A stretch of DNA of 63,355 nucleotides, counting the filler, from Licmophora abbreviata (taxonomy: Eukaryota), in NCBI GenBank assembly GCA_900291995.1. It is 54 parts of 54 records of this genome, joined end to end, with 100 filler letters (N's around TTAATTAATTAA, not from the genome) between each part and the next. Parts side by side here need not be neighbours in the genome. Positions count along the whole stretch, not along the records: positions 33,422 to 34,491 come from OLMU01006744.1; 53 more parts are not named here. One strand, 5' to 3'. The notes under the pieces were generated by a model, which was given only the letters and a program-made list of their open reading frames with translations, ran no database searches and had not been told where the DNA came from. Numbering within the stretch: the stretch's first letter is position 1; each line of letters opens with the position of its first letter. A program made the position numbers and the translations under genes. Of the stretch, positions 4,865 to 55,346 are shown in pieces.

Positions 4865-5659
4865 CAGCGTCGGTTTTCGACTTCTTATTTTTCCAAGTAA
4901 AAAAAGCAGAAATAAACATTTTGCTACTATTGATCGCGTATTACGTCAAAATAAGACCGCGAAACAATCGCAAATTGTCAGGAAACTGAACCCTATTATA
5001 ATTGGTTGGACTATTTATTTTAGGTATTCGCATTTCTTAACGACAAAAATAGGTGGTTATATGAAGCAAATTTTGTTTAATAAGCTTATGTATTGGGGAA
5101 GAAGGAAACTTAACTCGGCCAACAAATCAATGAGTGTTTATGATAAATTCTGGCACAAAATCGATGGGAGACGACAATTTGCTTTTAAAGATCGTGACGG
5201 TGAATATGTTACAATTTCACTTTATCGAAAAATTGCGAAAGAAGTTTCCCTTGTGAAATATGTAAAAGTTAAAGGAGGTGTTTCGGTGTATAATGGTGAT
5301 CTTAACTACTGGTCTAGAAGAGCAATCATTCCTGATTTAAAAACTCGGACGAGAGCTCAACTGTTAAAGCGACAGAACTATAAGTGTCCGCTTTGTGGAA
5401 AGATCTTTTTACCTTTTGACATCATTGAAACTGATTATATTACTCCTATTGCTAAAGGCGGTTTCTCATAAGATTACTAACTTGCAGCTTTTACATGCGG
5501 TATGTCATGACAAAGAAAGGGATAATTAATCAAAATAATTTTTAGCTGTGCAAAACTTCGAGTTTTCCCAGTGATGCTTGAGGAGCCGTGTGCGTTGAAA
5601 GACGCACGCACGGTTTTGGGGAGAGTTTGGCGGTTATAAAACAGCCATTCGATTCTCTG
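4865..5659 (+). mobile_element. 3' part of a mitochondrial group II intron in rnl (domains IV-VI)
   Basis: 34-nt domain V GAGCCGTGTGCGTTGAAAGACGCACGCACGGTTT at 5583-5616, then a domain VI hairpin with candidate bulged A at 5652, followed directly by LSU rRNA sequence. Confidence 0.92.
4866..5529 (+). pseudogene. Intron-encoded protein C-terminus (maturase X + D + HNH) with damaged endonuclease domain
   Basis: KLNPIIIGWTIYFR, YVKVKG..SVYNGDLNYWSRR and LLKRQNYKCPLCG. ETDYITP stands where DHI is expected. An extra T at about 5463 puts the rest (SHKITNLQLLHAVCHDK) in another frame. Confidence 0.85.
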
Positions 5660-5925
5660 CCTATCTACCATAAGTGTTAAAAATTGAGAGGATTAAACCC
5701 TAGTACGAGAGGACCGGGAAAGGCAAATCTCTGGTGAATCGATTGTCGTACCAACGGCACTGTCGAGTAGCTATATTTGTAATAGATAATCGCTGAAAGC
5801 ATCTAAGCGAGAAACTAACCTCAAAATTTATTTTTTTATAGATGTAATAGATGATTACATAGATAGGCTTGATGTGTGAAAATTGTAAGATTTTAAGCTG
5901 ACAAGTACTAAAAATTTTTAACTAT
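5660..5925 (+). rRNA. rnl: Mitochondrial LSU rRNA, 3' terminal exon (3' end approximate)
   Basis: CCTATCTACC, sarcin-ricin loop AGTACGAGAGGACC (5702-5715) and GCTGAAAGCATCTAAGC, in AT-rich sequence. Confidence 0.92.
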
Positions 5926-6079
5926 ATAAACTTTTTAACTGATATAAGTTTAAAAATATTTTAAATCTATATATTATAGNNNNNNNNNNNNNNNNNNNNN
6001 NNNNNNNNNNNNNNNNNNNNNNNTTAATTAATTAANNNNNNNNNNNNNNNNNNNNNNNNNNNNNNNNNNNNNNNNNNNN

Positions 6080-16871: not shown

Positions 16872-17963
16872 AGAAAGGCTTAGTGGTTTGGCATAGCATC
16901 CTTAGCGACCTAAGGTGCGACGCCACAGGAGTGTGTTGGGAGATGTCTTTTTACCAATTCTAGGCGAAGAAAGCCTCTTGGGATCGATGACCCTCGCTGC
17001 AAAGGCGCAGCTCTCTCAAGCTCACTTCTATCGAATAATCTAGTAGACAACAGTGATTTAGTGTAAGACTACATCCGATCATCCTAGTGTTTGAGCTCAC
17101 TTCCAACATTATTCGATAGAAGCCCTCGGGAGCCCTATCGGAACATAGGAACGAGGTGGCCTTGATACAGGAACATCATCGCCAGAGTCATCGTGCGGTC
17201 ATTCTCAACGGACGAGAATCACGCCCATCGATACATCACATCGCGCCCCATCACATCACATCACGACAACGATAGTAACATCGACATCGTGAGACAAGTG
17301 AACAGCGCACACAAAGCAATCCTCTAACACCATGAGTGGTAGAGGTGGACGCGGCCGAGGTGGCCGTAGCAGCGGTCGAGGACGTGGCCGCGGGAGGAAC
17401 TACACGAGCCCGAGGAAGACCGCGAAGAAAGGACTTTGCGAAGCACTCGGAGCCAACGTGTTTGATTACGGACAGAAGGCGTCCGCAGACCTCATGCGGA
17501 CCACATGGGAGAAATTGGTACAATATGTCGGTATCAATTATGGAACAGAGATCAATGAGGAGTTGAAGACGAAGACGCGAGTAACGATCCCGGCACCCGC
17601 GTATAGCGAAGCAATCATGGCACGCCATGCAGCCAGGGAAGCAATGGTTCGAGCAGGTCAGAACAACATCCAAGCGGTTCGCAGGGCAAAGCTTGCAAGG
17701 CTCCAAGCGGTAGACCCCAGCGACGACCCGGATGCTGACATCAAAGTGGCAAATCTCATGAACGAGATCGCCGAGACGGACTATGAGATGCAACAGGACA
17801 TTCCCGTCAAGCTGACAGAAAGTGAGAAGTCAGAACGGGACAGCGAGCTCCGCACGTATCGTGAACTCCAGAACCAGCTGAAGAAGCAGCGTGGTCAAGT
17901 GTTCAACCTCATGCACGGACAGTGCACTCAGTTGCTCCAGGACAAGATGAAGCAGGATCTTGA
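16872..17963 (+). mobile_element. Copia-like 5' end: putative LTR end (~17108), leader and gag start (17332)
   Basis: Gag begins with an RGG-rich tail, then LGANVFDYG...TTWEKLVQYVG..YG and HGQCTQLLQDKMKQD. The LTR boundary is inferred. Confidence 0.75.
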
Positions 17964-24960: not shown

Positions 24961-25241
24961 CATCAGTTATTTGTAATATCAACTTTCGTTCGCTTGGTTG
25001 AGCACATCGCTCACCGGCGATATCCGGAGCTGGGGTTACCGATAGGTGTTGCGAGCAGGGGCCAACAAAACCATCTTGCGTGAAAGCGATNNNNNNNNNN
25101 NNNNNNNNNNNNNNNNNNNNNNNNNNNNNNNNNNTTAATTAATTAANNNNNNNNNNNNNNNNNNNNNNNNNNNNNNNNNNNNNNNNNNNNGGCCGGTTGT
25201 GGCCCCGCCATTCACGCCGGCCCATTGGGCCGACGCAAATC

Positions 25242-25940
25242 TCATTCCGACGCCGCGTTCGAGACGTCGATGCTGACACCCGGACCCATGGTCGAGGTCA
25301 GCGAAATCTTCTTCATGTAGGTGCCCTTGGCACCTGCCGGCTTGGCCTTGGCCACTGCCGTCACGAAGGCGCGCACGTTTTCCACCAGCTTGGCATCGTC
25401 AAACGACGCCTTGCCGACACCTGCATGCACGACACCGGCCTTTTCGGCCTTGAACTGGACTTCACCGCCCTTGGCGGCCTTGACGGCGTCACCTACGTCC
25501 ATGGTCACGGTGCCGACTTTGGGGTTCGGCATCAGGTTGCGCGGGCCAAGCACCTTGCCCAGACGACCGACGATCGGCATCATGTCCGGGGTTGCGATGC
25601 AGCGATCGAAATCGATCTTGCCGCCCTGAATGGTTTCCATCAGGTCTTCGGCGCCCACGATATCGGCACCTGCGGCCTGCGCTTCTTCGGCCTTGGCGCC
25701 ACGGGCGAACACGGCAACGCGCACGTCCTTGCCGGTGCCATTCGGCAGGCCGACAACACCGCGGACCATCTGGTCGGCGTGGCGCGGATCGACGCCGAGA
25801 TTCATCGAAATCTCGACCGTTTCATCGAATTTCGCGTTTGCGTTGGCCTTGATCAGCGCAACGGCTTCCTCGACGCTGAGGTTTTCCTTGCCAGCGAATG
25901 CCTCGCGTGCGGCGCGGGTGCGTTTTCCAAGCTTTGCCAT
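25242..25940 (-). CDS. rplA: Bacterial 50S ribosomal protein L1 (Rhodobacteraceae-like)
   Basis: [15 protein letters not shown]...[14 protein letters not shown]...[15 protein letters not shown], with high-GC codon usage. Confidence 0.98.
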
Positions 25941-25941
25941 C

Positions 25942-26268
25942 TTACTTCACCTCGATGCCCATGGAACGCGCGGAGCCGAGGATGATTTTCATCGCGGCGT
26001 CAACATCGTTCGCGTTCAGGTCTTTCCACTTGGCTTCGGCGATTTCGCGCACCTGCTTGGTGGACACTGTGCCAGCGGTCGCGCGGCCCGGCGTATTGGA
26101 CCCAGACTGCAGCTTTGCGGCCTTCTTGAGGTAGTACGACGCCGGCGGCGTCTTGATGTCCATCTCGAAAGACTTGTCCTGGTAATAGGTGATTACGGTC
26201 GGGCACGGCGCACCGGGCTCCATGTCCTGCGTCTTGGCGTTGAACGCCTTGCAGAATTCCATGATGTT
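25942..26268 (-). CDS. rplK: Bacterial 50S ribosomal protein L11, 5'-partial
   Basis: [13 protein letters not shown]...KTPPASY...[10 protein letters not shown], directly upstream of rplA. Confidence 0.98.
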
Positions 26269-26369
26269 GNNNNNNNNNNNNNNNNNNNNNNNNNNNNNNN
26301 NNNNNNNNNNNNNTTAATTAATTAANNNNNNNNNNNNNNNNNNNNNNNNNNNNNNNNNNNNNNNNNNNN

Positions 26370-33421: not shown

Positions 33422-34073
33422 GGAAGATATACCGCTGCCCTTCGAAACCGTAGGTAACGCCACGGATGGCCTTAAGGAGCCAAGAGACATCGCTGGTGTC
33501 GTTGCTATCGTTGTAGCCTTCCAAAGTCATTACCTTGGCCTTCATTGCTTCACTGCATTGGCCCCAGGTGACGGCATGAAGTCCCTTCATGTTTCCTGCT
33601 AGGTGACCCTTCCTCGAATAATAGGAGTCTACCTCTTTCTGCCATAGGGCTGACTGGAGTCGGCTTGCAGCGTCTTCTTCCGAAAGCTCTTCGGGTAACG
33701 GGAGCACGGGGGCATCGAGCGTCTTGAAAAGAGTCGATAAGTCACCGGCGTGTTTCTGTTTCTTGGCTGAGTACTCCGCGAGTGCCTCTAGGGTCTTTAC
33801 AAACTGTTGTGGGTCACTGGACTCCTGAAATGTCTGGAAGACATGTCCGTTCATTCCATCCGTGTTTCCTTTGAAATTCGATGGTTTCTTCTTCTCGGCC
33901 GCTGATCCGCGGGCGAAACGGGACTGGTTGCGGTTACCATTACGATTGCGTGAGGGGCGCTGGGACTGGCCGCTCGCCGACCCTCCTGACTGTTGAGTCC
34001 CGGCCGACGCTCCTTGGTTCTCTCCTGACTCGCCTGTGGCGCCGCTTCCTTGGGCAGGGGTTTCACTGGCCAT
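33422..34073 (-). mobile_element. Copia-like gag N-terminal fragment
   Basis: FKGNTDGMNGHVFQ...QFVKTLEALAEY...WGQCSEAMKAKV...WLLKAIRG. Homologous to 54597-55346. Confidence 0.8.
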
Positions 34074-34413
34074 GATGTTCGATGTTTTGCGGTGCCCTGC
34101 TCGTGTTGATGCCACTGACAGTCCGGACGTGGACACGCTTTGCGGTCACTTTGGTGACAGTTCCAATCCTGTCCCTTTCGGTGACTGTCCGACCACGCAG
34201 TGGGTACTTGACCTCGTTCGTAATGCGCACGATGTCACCGATCCTATACGCCTCAACGCCGGAGTTGGCGGGGCTGTTGTGCGATGCGTTCGTCGCTGAA
34301 CGGATTTCCTGGTCTCTGGCTGCTACCAATCGGCGGATGAGTACGCCTTCTTGGACTCGCAGTTGCTCCAATTGTTGAATGAGCTCTAACACTGAGTCCT
34401 CGGCTCTCGTCAT
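34063..34413 (-). CDS. Conserved 116-aa ORF upstream of and overlapping gag (coiled coil plus SH3/KOW-like domain)
   Basis: ATG at 34413 and YRIGDIVRITNEV...GTVTKVTAKRVHVRT. An intact homologue lies at 54305-54604. Confidence 0.75.
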   Translation of the reverse strand: MTRAEDSVLELIQQLEQLRVQEGVLIRRLVAARDQEIRSATNASHNSPANSGVEAYRIGDIVRITNEVKYPLRGRTVTERDRIGTVTKVTAKRVHVRTVSGINTSRAPQNIEHHGQ

Positions 34414-34591
34414 TCGATGTAGCGCAAAGTTCTTTGATTCTTTCTGTTTTTCGGTTGAAATAATGTTAAAACTCCACAAACCACTGTTATCNNNNNNNNN
34501 NNNNNNNNNNNNNNNNNNNNNNNNNNNNNNNNNNNTTAATTAATTAANNNNNNNNNNNNNNNNNNNNNNNNNNNNNNNNNNNNNNNNNNNN

Positions 34592-50857: not shown

Positions 50858-51508
50858 CATATTTCTATAATTGGTTTTTATCTTTATAAAGAGTTAATTT
50901 TTTTATTGAGTCTTCCTATTCTCACTTATATTGGTTTCCTTATATAAAATGCTTTTGACGGAATTAACCGGGTCCCTAATTTTTAGACGAACCTCCATAC
51001 TATATAAAAACCATTCCTTAACCTGACCCCCTTTTTGGATCTCTTCTCACATAGTAGCTTCAAATGCTGCTACCTTAGTGAGCAAACTTGGTTTCATAAA
51101 TAAATGTATCGGATACCTATTTAGTCTTTAATTCTCATCCCGAGACGGTGTAATAGTGTATAATTGGTGACCTAGGTATTACGTCATGCATATAATACCC
51201 CCACTATCCAAGTTCTTTTGAAGACTGAAACTTTTGGCTTCCTGTGCCACACCTGACCTAGGTTCAAGATCATATCCTTAATCCTTATTTATCTCCTAGA
51301 GACCATTCAACCTTATTCTTCCTAAGTATCGTGGTCCCGTTATCAACATGCTGTGTTCCCCACACGCTTTCACGTATTTGCATTTTTTTCCAGTTTCGGA
51401 TTTTTTGTCGGTTTTTATGTTTTCGGGTTAGTTGATCGAATTTCTGACAGATCGCTGTCGATAGGCTCTATATGTCCTACTAATTTATTTATGAATCACA
51501 AGTCGCAC
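50858..51508 (-). mobile_element. 5' part of a mitochondrial group II intron in cob
   Basis: GTGCG directly follows the FLAM codons. Collinear with the rnl intron at 34592-35306. Confidence 0.9.
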
Positions 51509-51754
51509 CATTGCTAGAAAGATTCCAGAAAGTATTTGAATTACTAAACAAATACCTGCCGCAGACCCAAAACTCCAAGCATAACTTAAATTGATTGATG
51601 TTGGATAATGTATTAAATGGTTATCTATAAATGCTGTTAAAAAATTTTTGTTCCATCTTAATGTTGTTGTTACAAATAAACTTATGGCACTAGGTATTTC
51701 TAATACATTTGGTGCGTAAGATTTTTTAAATGTATCTTTATATTTTAATTTCAT
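51509..51754 (-). CDS. cob: Mitochondrial apocytochrome b, exon 1 (start uncertain: ATG 51754 or TTA 51661)
   Basis: RWNK...[37 protein letters not shown]. Confidence 0.95.
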
Positions 51755-51755
51755 A

Positions 51756-51830
51756 AAAGTAATTTTGGATTCGAACCAAACTATCCTATATAAAATGAAG
51801 CCATTCTTGACCTATTAATTGAATTACTTT
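51756..51830 (-). pseudogene. Degenerate tRNA-like element (CAU-like loop)
   Basis: Acceptor stem AAGTAAT/ATTACTT and T-arm TTTGG-TTCGAAT-CCAAA pair well. The D and anticodon stems pair poorly. Confidence 0.55.
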
Positions 51831-52625
51831 ATTTAAAATAACGAATATTATCGTTTAATTTTACGTACTGTTTTAGCTATTTGTGTGTGTACGTTGACCT
51901 CTAACNNNNNNNNNNNNNNNNNNNNNNNNNNNNNNNNNNNNNNNNNNNNTTAATTAATTAANNNNNNNNNNNNNNNNNNNNNNNNNNNNNNNNNNNNNNN
52001 NNNNNAACGAACGAATGAATTTTAATACCCTTCGACAAGTAGTTGGATGTTGCTCATCTCTGTCCCTCTTGTGTTCTCGTCGTCCGTCATCATCATTGCA
52101 AATCACACCATTGATTCGGGCTCGACTCTCACATCACTCGATTCGATTCATTCATTTTGCATTTTATCACACTACGAGTACGTACAATCTTGACGGTCCG
52201 ACGCGAGGACAGACTGTCCGCGAATTGGAAAAAATGTCGAATTTCGAAAATGTCACAGAATGTCTGATGTCTGAATTTTGATGTTGTGAATCACGCTCGT
52301 GTAGCCATCGATTAAATAAATTCATACACAATAATCAAGCTTAAATATAGAATAATATGTTCAGAGTCATCGCTTATCATTTATTGAGAGATGACCAGTG
52401 GCTTCTATCATGACGGCCCAACGCACCTCTCTTGCCTCACGAGCATCTACGCTCACAAACTGGGAGGATAAGTGAGATATGCCTCTTGTTCCCTCAATTC
52501 GGGAACCAAACCGCAATCTCCACTCTTTCCACCGAGAATGGGACCATTCCATAGTATTTCATCAATCACTTTCGTGATCATCGAGACCAAAGCTTCCTTG
52601 CGGTTGACATCGATTTCGAGCAATC

Positions 52626-54202: not shown

Positions 54203-54304
54203 NNNNNNNNNNNNNNNNNNNNNNNNNNNNNNNNNNNNNNNNNNNNTTAATTAATTAANNNNNNNNNNNNNNNNNNNNNNNNNNNNNNNNNNNNNNNNNN
54301 NNAA

Positions 54305-54604
54305 CAGCTGAGAGTCCAAGAGGGTGTCCTTCTCCGCCGGTTAGCAGCAGCTCGTGAAACTGAAATCCGAACCCCCGTGACCTCGTCCAGCGATCGCTCC
54401 GCCCGATCCGGCGTCGAGTCCTTCCGCATTGGCGACACAGTGAGAGTGACCAACGAAGTGAAGTATCCTCTTTTTGGACGCACCGTAACAGAACGAGACA
54501 GAGTCGGGACGGTCACCAAGGTTACGCCTAAACGAGTACACCTTCGAACCATCAGCGGCGTAAACACGAACCGAGCTCCACAGAATCTCGTGCATCATGA
54601 CTAG
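54305..54604 (+). CDS. Second copy of the conserved pre-gag ORF (5'-partial)
   Basis: QLRVQEGVLLRRL...FRIGDTVRVTNEVKYPLFGRTVTERDRVGTVTKVT. The stop codon overlaps the start of gag. Confidence 0.75.
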   Translation, partial: QLRVQEGVLLRRLAAARETEIRTPVTSSSDRSARSGVESFRIGDTVRVTNEVKYPLFGRTVTERDRVGTVTKVTPKRVHLRTISGVNTNRAPQNLVHHD

Positions 54605-55346
54605 CGACGACGCAGCCCAAGCGGGCACTACCACCGGAGAAACAGCCGGAACGGAAACTGGAACCCAGCAGTCAGGTGGAAGCGGAACGAACAACCGCTC
54701 TAAACGTAACAAGTCGCGTTTTTGCCCGTGCATCCGGATCCGAAAAGAAGAAGACAACTTTCAAAGGGAACACTGAGGGAATGAACGCGCACGTTTTCCA
54801 AACCTTCCAGGAGTCTGGAGACCCCCAGCAGTTCGTGAAGACTCTGGAGGCTCTCGCGGAATACTCCGCAAAGAATCAGAAGTATGCAGGAGATCTCGCG
54901 ACTCTCTTTAAAACGCTCGACGCGCCCACCATTCCCTTGCCAGAAGAGCTATCAGAGGAAGAGGCAGAAAGCCGACTGAAGTTGGCGCTGTGGCAGAAAG
55001 AAGTTGACGGCTACTACACGAAGAAAGGACACCTTGCCGGTAACCTAAAGGGCCTGCACGCAGTAACGTGGGGACAATGCAGCGAGGCAATGAAAGCGAA
55101 GGTCATGACCCTAGACGGTTACACTGAGAGCGACGACGACAGCGACGTCTCCTGGCTGCTCAAAGCGATTCGTGGCGTTACCTACGGATTCGAGGGACAA
55201 AGATACATCTTTCTTGCTTTCGACGACGCACTAACTGACTTCTACTCCTATCGCCAGGCTCACGACGAGTCCCTCTCAGATTACCTACAGACTTTCAGAA
55301 CCAAGCTCGATATCTTGAAGCACTATGGAGGTGGAGACTCCATGGG
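54597..55346 (+). mobile_element. Copia-like gag N-terminal fragment (+1 T near 54720)
   Basis: Homologous to 33422-34073. ATG at 54597; the frameshift lies in a T5 run. Confidence 0.8.

Follow-up and report, generated by a model that had tools for sequence, protein, structure and literature searches.

Copia elements predominate among the transposons of model diatoms and are activated by stress, and in 2009 Maumus already searched these elements (CoDi) for an "ORF1" upstream of the polyprotein and tabulated it (PMC2806351). CoDi elements resemble the element studied here in their copia domain order, and an upstream ORF was likewise sought and tabulated for them, for which the available text of that work gives no size, family, fold or translation model. 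This ORF1 may be the same protein as ours or a split gag, and the bare existence of an upstream ORF may already be on record; the premise of the original prediction that copia elements normally encode only gag-pol was too strong, since such an ORF had already been sought in diatom copia elements. In addition, another source on CoDi elements notes chromodomains and, in its available part, no upstream ORFs (PMC2774666), extra ORFs of LTR elements are described as lying mostly downstream of pol (PMC7264820), and a survey in plants counted only extra ORFs of at least 250 codons, its copia case being a 3′ ORF (PMC6317226). Indeed, the ORF described here is easy to miss because its ~115 codons fall below this 250-codon floor and because it has no Pfam family. 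Within the literature covered, with most subscription journals, GyDB and Repbase lying outside it, we found neither this ORF1 family nor leaky scanning to a copia gag described, and our homologue searches gave no named CoDi reference sequence.

In RTBV and the badnaviruses, an accessory ORF of 110–130 aa lies directly before the capsid-protease-RT polyprotein, with a weak start and no internal AUG, and the downstream ORF is reached by leaky scanning (PMC5902531, PMC3542737). The size, position, weak start and lack of internal AUG are found again at our locus, for which leaky scanning is proposed as well. The P2/VAP protein of these viruses has a mass of 14 kDa, contains a coiled coil and binds nucleic acid (PMC4974523). 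In contrast, the carrier here is a diatom copia LTR element with an integrase, with one upstream ORF instead of two and no movement protein, and the C-terminal part of the ORF product is a predicted SH3-like barrel. No caulimovirid VAP occurred among the Pfam, PDB and BFVD matches, an absence from lists that does not exclude homology. The arrangement appears to work like ORF II-III of badnaviruses and tungroviruses and is not taken as a member of that group, since the element class is another one and no homology was found.

Three other systems share part of this design. The Drosophila Ty3/gypsy elements MDG1/412 carry small selected ORFs (~110 and ~70 aa) before gag, and these sORF1 and sORF2 lie on the full-length RNA, with their translation shown (bioRxiv 2025.03.14.642691). 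However, these elements belong to the gypsy class, their sORF2 is membrane fusogen-like and their sORF1 a predicted helix-turn-helix protein, whereas a membrane or hydrophobic segment was found in 0 of 124 members of our ORF1 family. Bicistronic nuclear mRNAs of green algae also combine a weak first start, a stronger second start and AUG depletion before ORF 2, with leaky scanning shown by mutation (PMC11291117); they are host genes and not a retroelement, and the ORF1 signal is sharper here. Finally, AUGnnUGA and AUGA junctions, as in the TURBS systems (caliciviruses, influenza B) and SART1, are seen in 16 of our 28 elements, but these have no common UGGGA, their junction is variable and their upstream ORF is cleared of AUG. 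We conclude that ORF1 is a real accessory gene, kept under selection in a diatom copia lineage and most likely expressed together with gag-pol by leaky scanning.

Two copies of ORF1 and their host

The window, i.e., the whole 63,355-nt stretch of DNA analysed, consists of 54 contigs of ~1.1 kb joined by N linkers, many of them transposon pieces, and the two ORF1 copies that it contains are therefore unlinked. Copy 1 (34063..34413, minus strand; contig 33422–34491) is, as predicted, an open frame of 116 codons, and no reading frame contains a further AUG before the gag start. Copy 2 (54305..54604, plus strand; contig 54303–55346) encodes the same protein over 99 codons, its 5′ end being lost at the contig edge. 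The copies are 72% identical and differ over 99 aligned codons at 26 first, 12 second and 61 third positions (pS 0.77, saturated; pN 0.17), in agreement with the many third-position changes first reported. The motif first quoted for them was right, and their description as near-identical proteins was correct for the barrel and the helix and did not hold for the linker.

The stop/start overlaps were also found as described. In copy 1, the ORF1 stop and the gag start overlap by 11 nt (34063..34073, minus strand), the gag ATG being located at 34073–34071 with A at −3 and G at +4, and in copy 2 the overlap is 8 nt, with the gag ATG at 54597–54599 on the plus strand. The overlap in copy 1 opens the 5′ part of a copia-type gag-pol gene (33422..34073, minus strand) cut by the contig edge; in relatives on longer contigs, gag continues into zinc knuckle, protease, integrase, RT and RNase H. 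The gag of copy 2 (54597..55346, plus strand) is broken in this assembly, since the reading frame of its AUG ends after 59 codons and the conserved core is encoded in a different one.

A diatom host is suggested by 54 matches to the light-harvesting family in the genome and by two Fragilaria crotonensis hypothetical proteins, which are the only named eukaryotic ORF1 homologues among the matches listed; no named Phaeodactylum or Thalassiosira homologue occurred among them. One homologue filed under uncultured Marinobacter is taken as a misbinned contig. Elsewhere in the window, a contig of 62% GC (25191–26269), with a reverse frame resembling bacterial ribosomal protein genes, is likely bacterial contamination, and two low-GC contigs (4865–5979 and 50858–51905) resemble, by eye, an organellar intron maturase and the start of cytochrome b.

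Selection, distribution and element identity

On the sequence evidence, ORF1 is a real gene under strong purifying selection. The dN/dS between copies, proposed from the outset as a check, has a median of 0.08 (range 0.05–0.42; 39 unsaturated of 55 pairs, 11 copies), far below 1, and frequent disruption was not observed, since 12 of the 13 ORF1 matches retained among 14 candidates in the own genome have no internal stop. Protein searches gave 295 matches and 600 representatives at 50% clustering, and among the matches listed nearly all homologues (several hundred in all) are stand-alone proteins of ~100–150 aa. These data bear on the idea that ORF1 is a mere translational attenuator of gag-pol whose peptide is irrelevant. 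An upstream AUG must indeed divert ribosomes from gag, but the low median dN/dS, the predicted folded domain and the number of representatives all speak for a selected protein, so that the attenuator-only reading appears largely refuted by the selection data and deserves almost no credence.

A metagenome scan yielded 26 loci from 107 pattern matches, and viral contigs gave 14 pattern matches with 0 confirmed. No longer or ORF1-gag fused form was found among 7,998 candidates of 278–2,000 aa, which is weak evidence. Long repeat proteins were rejected as relatives, since only the first strand and loop match (hhalign probability 62% over 44 columns), and their likeness is taken to be at the fold level only.

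Gag lies 3′ of ORF1 in 28 of 28 usable loci. As an example, the ORF1-bearing contig L052 has one frame of 1,509 codons with a zinc knuckle (362–378) and RVT_2 (1157–1389) found by Pfam, and protease, integrase DDE and RNase H motifs recognized by eye in the Gag-PR-INT-RT-RH order. As this frame combines a zinc knuckle with a copia-type RT, the carrier of ORF1 is, by its domains, a Ty1/copia LTR retrotransposon. Note that the HHCC residues usual at the integrase N-terminus are missing (by eye) from L052–L056, whether or not ORF1 is present. A role of ORF1 as a stand-in for these residues was rejected, since elements without an ORF1 profile match lack them too (by eye).

In the gag tree, the ORF1-bearing gags fall on one side of a 96/98 branch against five other gags; given that the set was picked by ORF1 and that the outside branches are long, this topology shows clustering and not a single origin. 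For three of these five gags, with enough upstream DNA, the profile finds no ORF1 there. In the window itself, a gag of another family (16872–17331, plus strand) follows a ~230-nt leader without AUG and without ORF1. Across 20 elements, the distances between ORF1 proteins correlate with those between Gags (Spearman 0.73). The pairing is not strict within a family, since L006 is a recombinant (87–93% like L004 over the first 500 nt and 88–95% like L001 after ~550 nt) that joins the ORF1 of one subfamily to the capsid region of another.

AUG depletion and start contexts

Starts and junctions were compared in the 28 elements having both starts, i.e., 10 of the 13 own-genome and 18 of the 26 metagenome loci, leaving out L009, L012, L029 and L039 (cut off or start missing), L010, L037 and L038 (ORF broken) and L032–L035 (no gag frame after the junction). 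Between the two starts, these elements contain 2 AUGs in 9,573 nt vs 142 in 9,507 nt of gag, and the 13 representatives with less than 60% identity contain 2 vs 66 in gag, over 4,444 nt each (P 8e-18). The interval is free of AUG in 26 of the 28 elements, L016 and L030 having one each, which opens frames of 4 and 8 codons, respectively. Indeed, ATG is the most depleted of the 64 trinucleotides (2 seen, 44 expected) and its complement CAT is not depleted. The depletion also holds at synonymous sites, since codon choice avoids out-of-frame AUG in ORF1 and not in gag: the xAT codon is used before G in 2 of 52 cases vs 41 of 153 before other bases (P 1.5e-4), compared with 93 of 246 in gag, and an A-ending codon precedes TG in 0 of 17 cases in ORF1. 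At the protein level, internal Met amounts to 0.14% in ORF1 (235 of 250 homologues covering the profile) vs 2.2% in Gag.

The start contexts are opposite. Position −3 of the ORF1 start is a pyrimidine in 28 of 28 elements, and gag starts carry a purine there in 26 of 28, with C in the exceptions L011 and L013 (own genome); among the representatives, a purine is found in 0 of 13 for ORF1 vs 12 of 13 for gag (P 3e-6). As a host control, A occupies −3 in 16 of 16 callable starts among 30 light-harvesting loci, one of these calls looking wrong. The role given to −3 in diatoms is drawn from this one host gene family and from general rules, the available texts of PMC12785164 and PMC8397651 giving no diatom consensus.

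The AUG depletion, the opposite start contexts and the variable junction together argue for leaky scanning rather than reinitiation, and we consider it very probable that scanning carries ribosomes past ORF1 to gag. One diatom Ty1/copia lineage would thus have a bicistronic genomic RNA, on which scanning ribosomes would first meet the ORF1 AUG in its weak context; some would start there and produce a 13-kDa ORF1 protein, and the remaining ones would scan the ~340 nt kept AUG-free and start at the strong gag AUG. Low RNA structure was rejected as a scanning aid, as the folding energy per base is similar to that of gag.

Several observations count against leaky scanning: (i) the commonest junction (13 of 28) is an 8-nt overlap with the AUGnnUGA geometry known from caliciviruses, (ii) the gag start has C at −3 in L011 and L013, (iii) the metagenome loci L032–L035, three of them near-identical, have an open ORF1 with 4–8 internal AUGs, and (iv) AUGs, all with a pyrimidine at −3, occur in the LTR part of the leader in 4 of the 10 loci with a putative start-site motif. 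In L032–L035, no gag frame of 40 codons was found after the junction, and these loci are read as decayed copies or, alternatively, as a subfamily with another expression route.

Spliced gag RNAs occur in some copia elements, which counts for the possibility that gag is read from an RNA of its own, either spliced or shortened, or that ORF1 and Gag are fused by frameshift or splicing. However, an ORF bypassed by splicing need not lose its AUGs, the gag AUG is kept in good context at nearly every junction and all three relative frames occur. In addition, in 26 loci no slippery heptamer was found, and in several of them a stop closes the gag frame as little as 2–3 codons upstream. Splicing that fuses the ORF to gag had been named at the outset as contrary evidence, and the candidates of 278–2,000 aa gave no such form, although this remains weak evidence. 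We regard production of Gag by these routes as very improbable.

Junction geometry and reinitiation

ORF1 and gag overlap in 19 of the 28 elements, by 4 nt (three elements), 8 nt (13), 11, 26 or 35 nt, and are separated in the other 9 by gaps of 1, 6 (two elements), 11 (three), 32, 42 or 71 nt. All three relative frames are represented, and the gag start lies −32 to +74 nt from the stop, 5 of 28 being beyond 20 nt. UGGGA, a motif that in TURBS is placed 40–90 nt upstream of the stop, is present within the last 100 nt of ORF1 in 4 of 28 elements, three of which are near-copies, and absent in copy 1 of the window; no TURBS motif common to the 28 elements was found, and the hexamers common to this region are codons of a conserved peptide motif.

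The original prediction proposed a translational coupling to gag, in which ribosomes finishing ORF1 would restart at the gag AUG as in caliciviruses or SART1, either alone or on top of scanning. The 19 overlapping junctions (13 by 8 nt and three by AUGA) fit this proposal, such geometries being known from caliciviruses and victoriviruses, and in 24 of 28 elements the gag start lies at most ~30 nt from the ORF1 stop. In contrast, the scarcity of UGGGA and the 4 of 28 junctions more than 30 nt apart, a range where TURBS reinitiation weakens, do not fit. Moreover, norovirus TURBS reinitiation needed no Kozak context (PMC10275272), reinitiation predicts neither the removal of AUGs nor a weak first start, and badnaviruses share AUGA overlaps yet are thought to scan. 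Given the variable overlap, the lack of a common TURBS, the AUG depletion and the opposite contexts, coupling is not favoured and seems improbable to us, and the stop/start overlap would reflect compaction and not a coupling signal. As a whole, a bicistronic RNA read by leaky scanning together with a nucleic-acid-binding ORF1 protein is likely to be the best explanation.

Fold and putative role of the ORF1 protein

The AlphaFold2 model (mean pLDDT 79, from a 124-sequence alignment) consists of a helix (residues 2–43) joined by a loose linker to a barrel built from five short strands. The N-terminal helix (34285..34410, minus strand), delimited by the model and by column conservation in the 124 sequences, follows a heptad pattern (residues 8, 11, 15, 18, 22, 25, 29, 32) and is likely a coiled coil; the homodimer prediction score of 0.02 in two runs, in which the alignment was not used and controls were not folded, carries no weight either way. 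The basic SH3-like beta barrel (residues 55–113; 34075..34251, minus strand), recognized from the model, fold matches and charge, has a pLDDT of 83–92 over most strands and 70 in the loop, near-invariant columns across the 124 sequences and a positive net charge in all 124 of them (mean +6.7).

Structure search returned SH3/KOW/Tudor/PWWP matches at Z 6–8, the best of which (Z 8.0) is tied among unrelated families, and the fold neighbours also include ribosomal and integrase SH3-like domains with E near 0.01, none of which stands out. Foldseek gave nothing in the PDB at E ≤ 0.001, BFVD gave 2 unnamed matches near E 0.001, and the best ESM Atlas scores were 0.82 (whole) and 0.86 (barrel), both below 0.9. 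By sequence, the best PDB match is a nitrile hydratase beta (E 0.03); both window copies fall below every Pfam cut-off, and SH3_15 matches 11 of the 124 members at E 0.002–0.01. The model, the Z values and the dN/dS support the prediction of an accessory protein under selection, helical at its N-terminus and followed there by an SH3/KOW/Tudor-like barrel. Since the fold matches are generic, its function is approached through charge and analogy only.

A conserved aromatic cage (2–4 residues) is absent from the 124 sequences, as judged from the alignment, in which three columns are at least 40% aromatic (69%, 57% and 40%). This weakens the suggestion that the protein binds chromatin by reading marks, and the protein is probably a nucleic-acid binder and not a histone-mark reader, RNA binding being plausible. 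The simplest reading of the model is an oligomer presenting several basic barrels to nucleic acid. ORF1 proteins would self-associate through the heptad helix, and their barrels would bind element RNA or cDNA, the protein serving as a particle-associated packaging or chaperone cofactor, as proposed for the badnavirus virion-associated protein. We put forward this particle-associated RNA/cDNA binder tentatively, at somewhat less than even chances.

With the same translation, ORF1 could instead antagonize silencing by binding small RNAs, element DNA or a silencing factor. The basic barrel would suit this role, DNMT5 knockout raises diatom transposons (PMC12785164), and some pararetrovirus accessory ORFs suppress RNAi; however, barrel conservation and the tracking of Gag divergence are more in line with a constant partner or with nucleic acid than with an arms race, and the protein was not found to resemble a known suppressor, which makes an antagonist unlikely. 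A guide for integration, either as a Tudor/PWWP-type mark reader or as an SH3-like integrase helper in trans, appears slightly less likely still. The fold neighbours do include PHF19, PHF1, SMN and PWWP domains and a foamy-virus integrase (E 0.015; BFVD rank 8), and chromodomains are described for some diatom copia integrases (PMC2774666), but all fold scores are generic, no cage is conserved and the window's own family is without the Trp of the aromatic columns. We therefore favour the RNA/cDNA binder over both roles.

More speculatively, and with doubt on our side, a widespread diatom copia lineage may have converged on the badnavirus design, with a particle-borne coiled-coil/SH3-like nucleic-acid binder, not described before, whose ratio to Gag-Pol would be set by the −3 base and could be adjusted by stress through the stringency of scanning. 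If true, these elements, known to be activated by stress, would be controlled by it in translation as well. A sharp and testable model of Gag-Pol production follows from the sequence, and if the third protein is required, the minimal set of copia components has to be revised. In addition, such a natural bicistronic cassette could possibly be reused for two-gene expression in diatoms.

Presumed LTR, leader and putative primer-binding site

Upstream of copy 1, the presumed 3′ end of the 5′ LTR (...AACA; 34464..34491, minus strand), identified by likeness, is cut by the contig edge. The same LTR end motif is present in 20 of the 26 loci examined, and in 7 metagenome loci it closes a segment beginning with TGT directly after a polypurine tract. 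LTRs are recognized here from one LTR-like segment per locus, none of the elements sampled being complete with its two LTRs and a target-site duplication. The leader between the LTR end and the ORF1 start (50 nt; 34414..34463, minus strand) has no AUG and has C at −3 of the ORF1 start. It begins with a conserved 9-nt motif at the position of the primer-binding site (34455..34463, minus strand), adjoining the LTR end and not of the TGG type; as in 19 further loci, its first bases are not TGG, and the primer may be an internal segment of a tRNA, unless priming takes another route.

In L016, L018, L021, L023, L024, L025 and L030, a purine tract and LTR start lie 350–400 nt upstream of ORF1. In those of these loci inspected by eye, they are preceded by the pol end, so that one LTR stands between two internal regions, either as tandem elements or as a collapsed assembly. 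Finally, a conserved 24-nt LTR motif starting with TCATT lies ~180–290 nt upstream of ORF1 in L002, L013, L018, L023–L027 and L030 and is possibly a transcription start or a processing signal.
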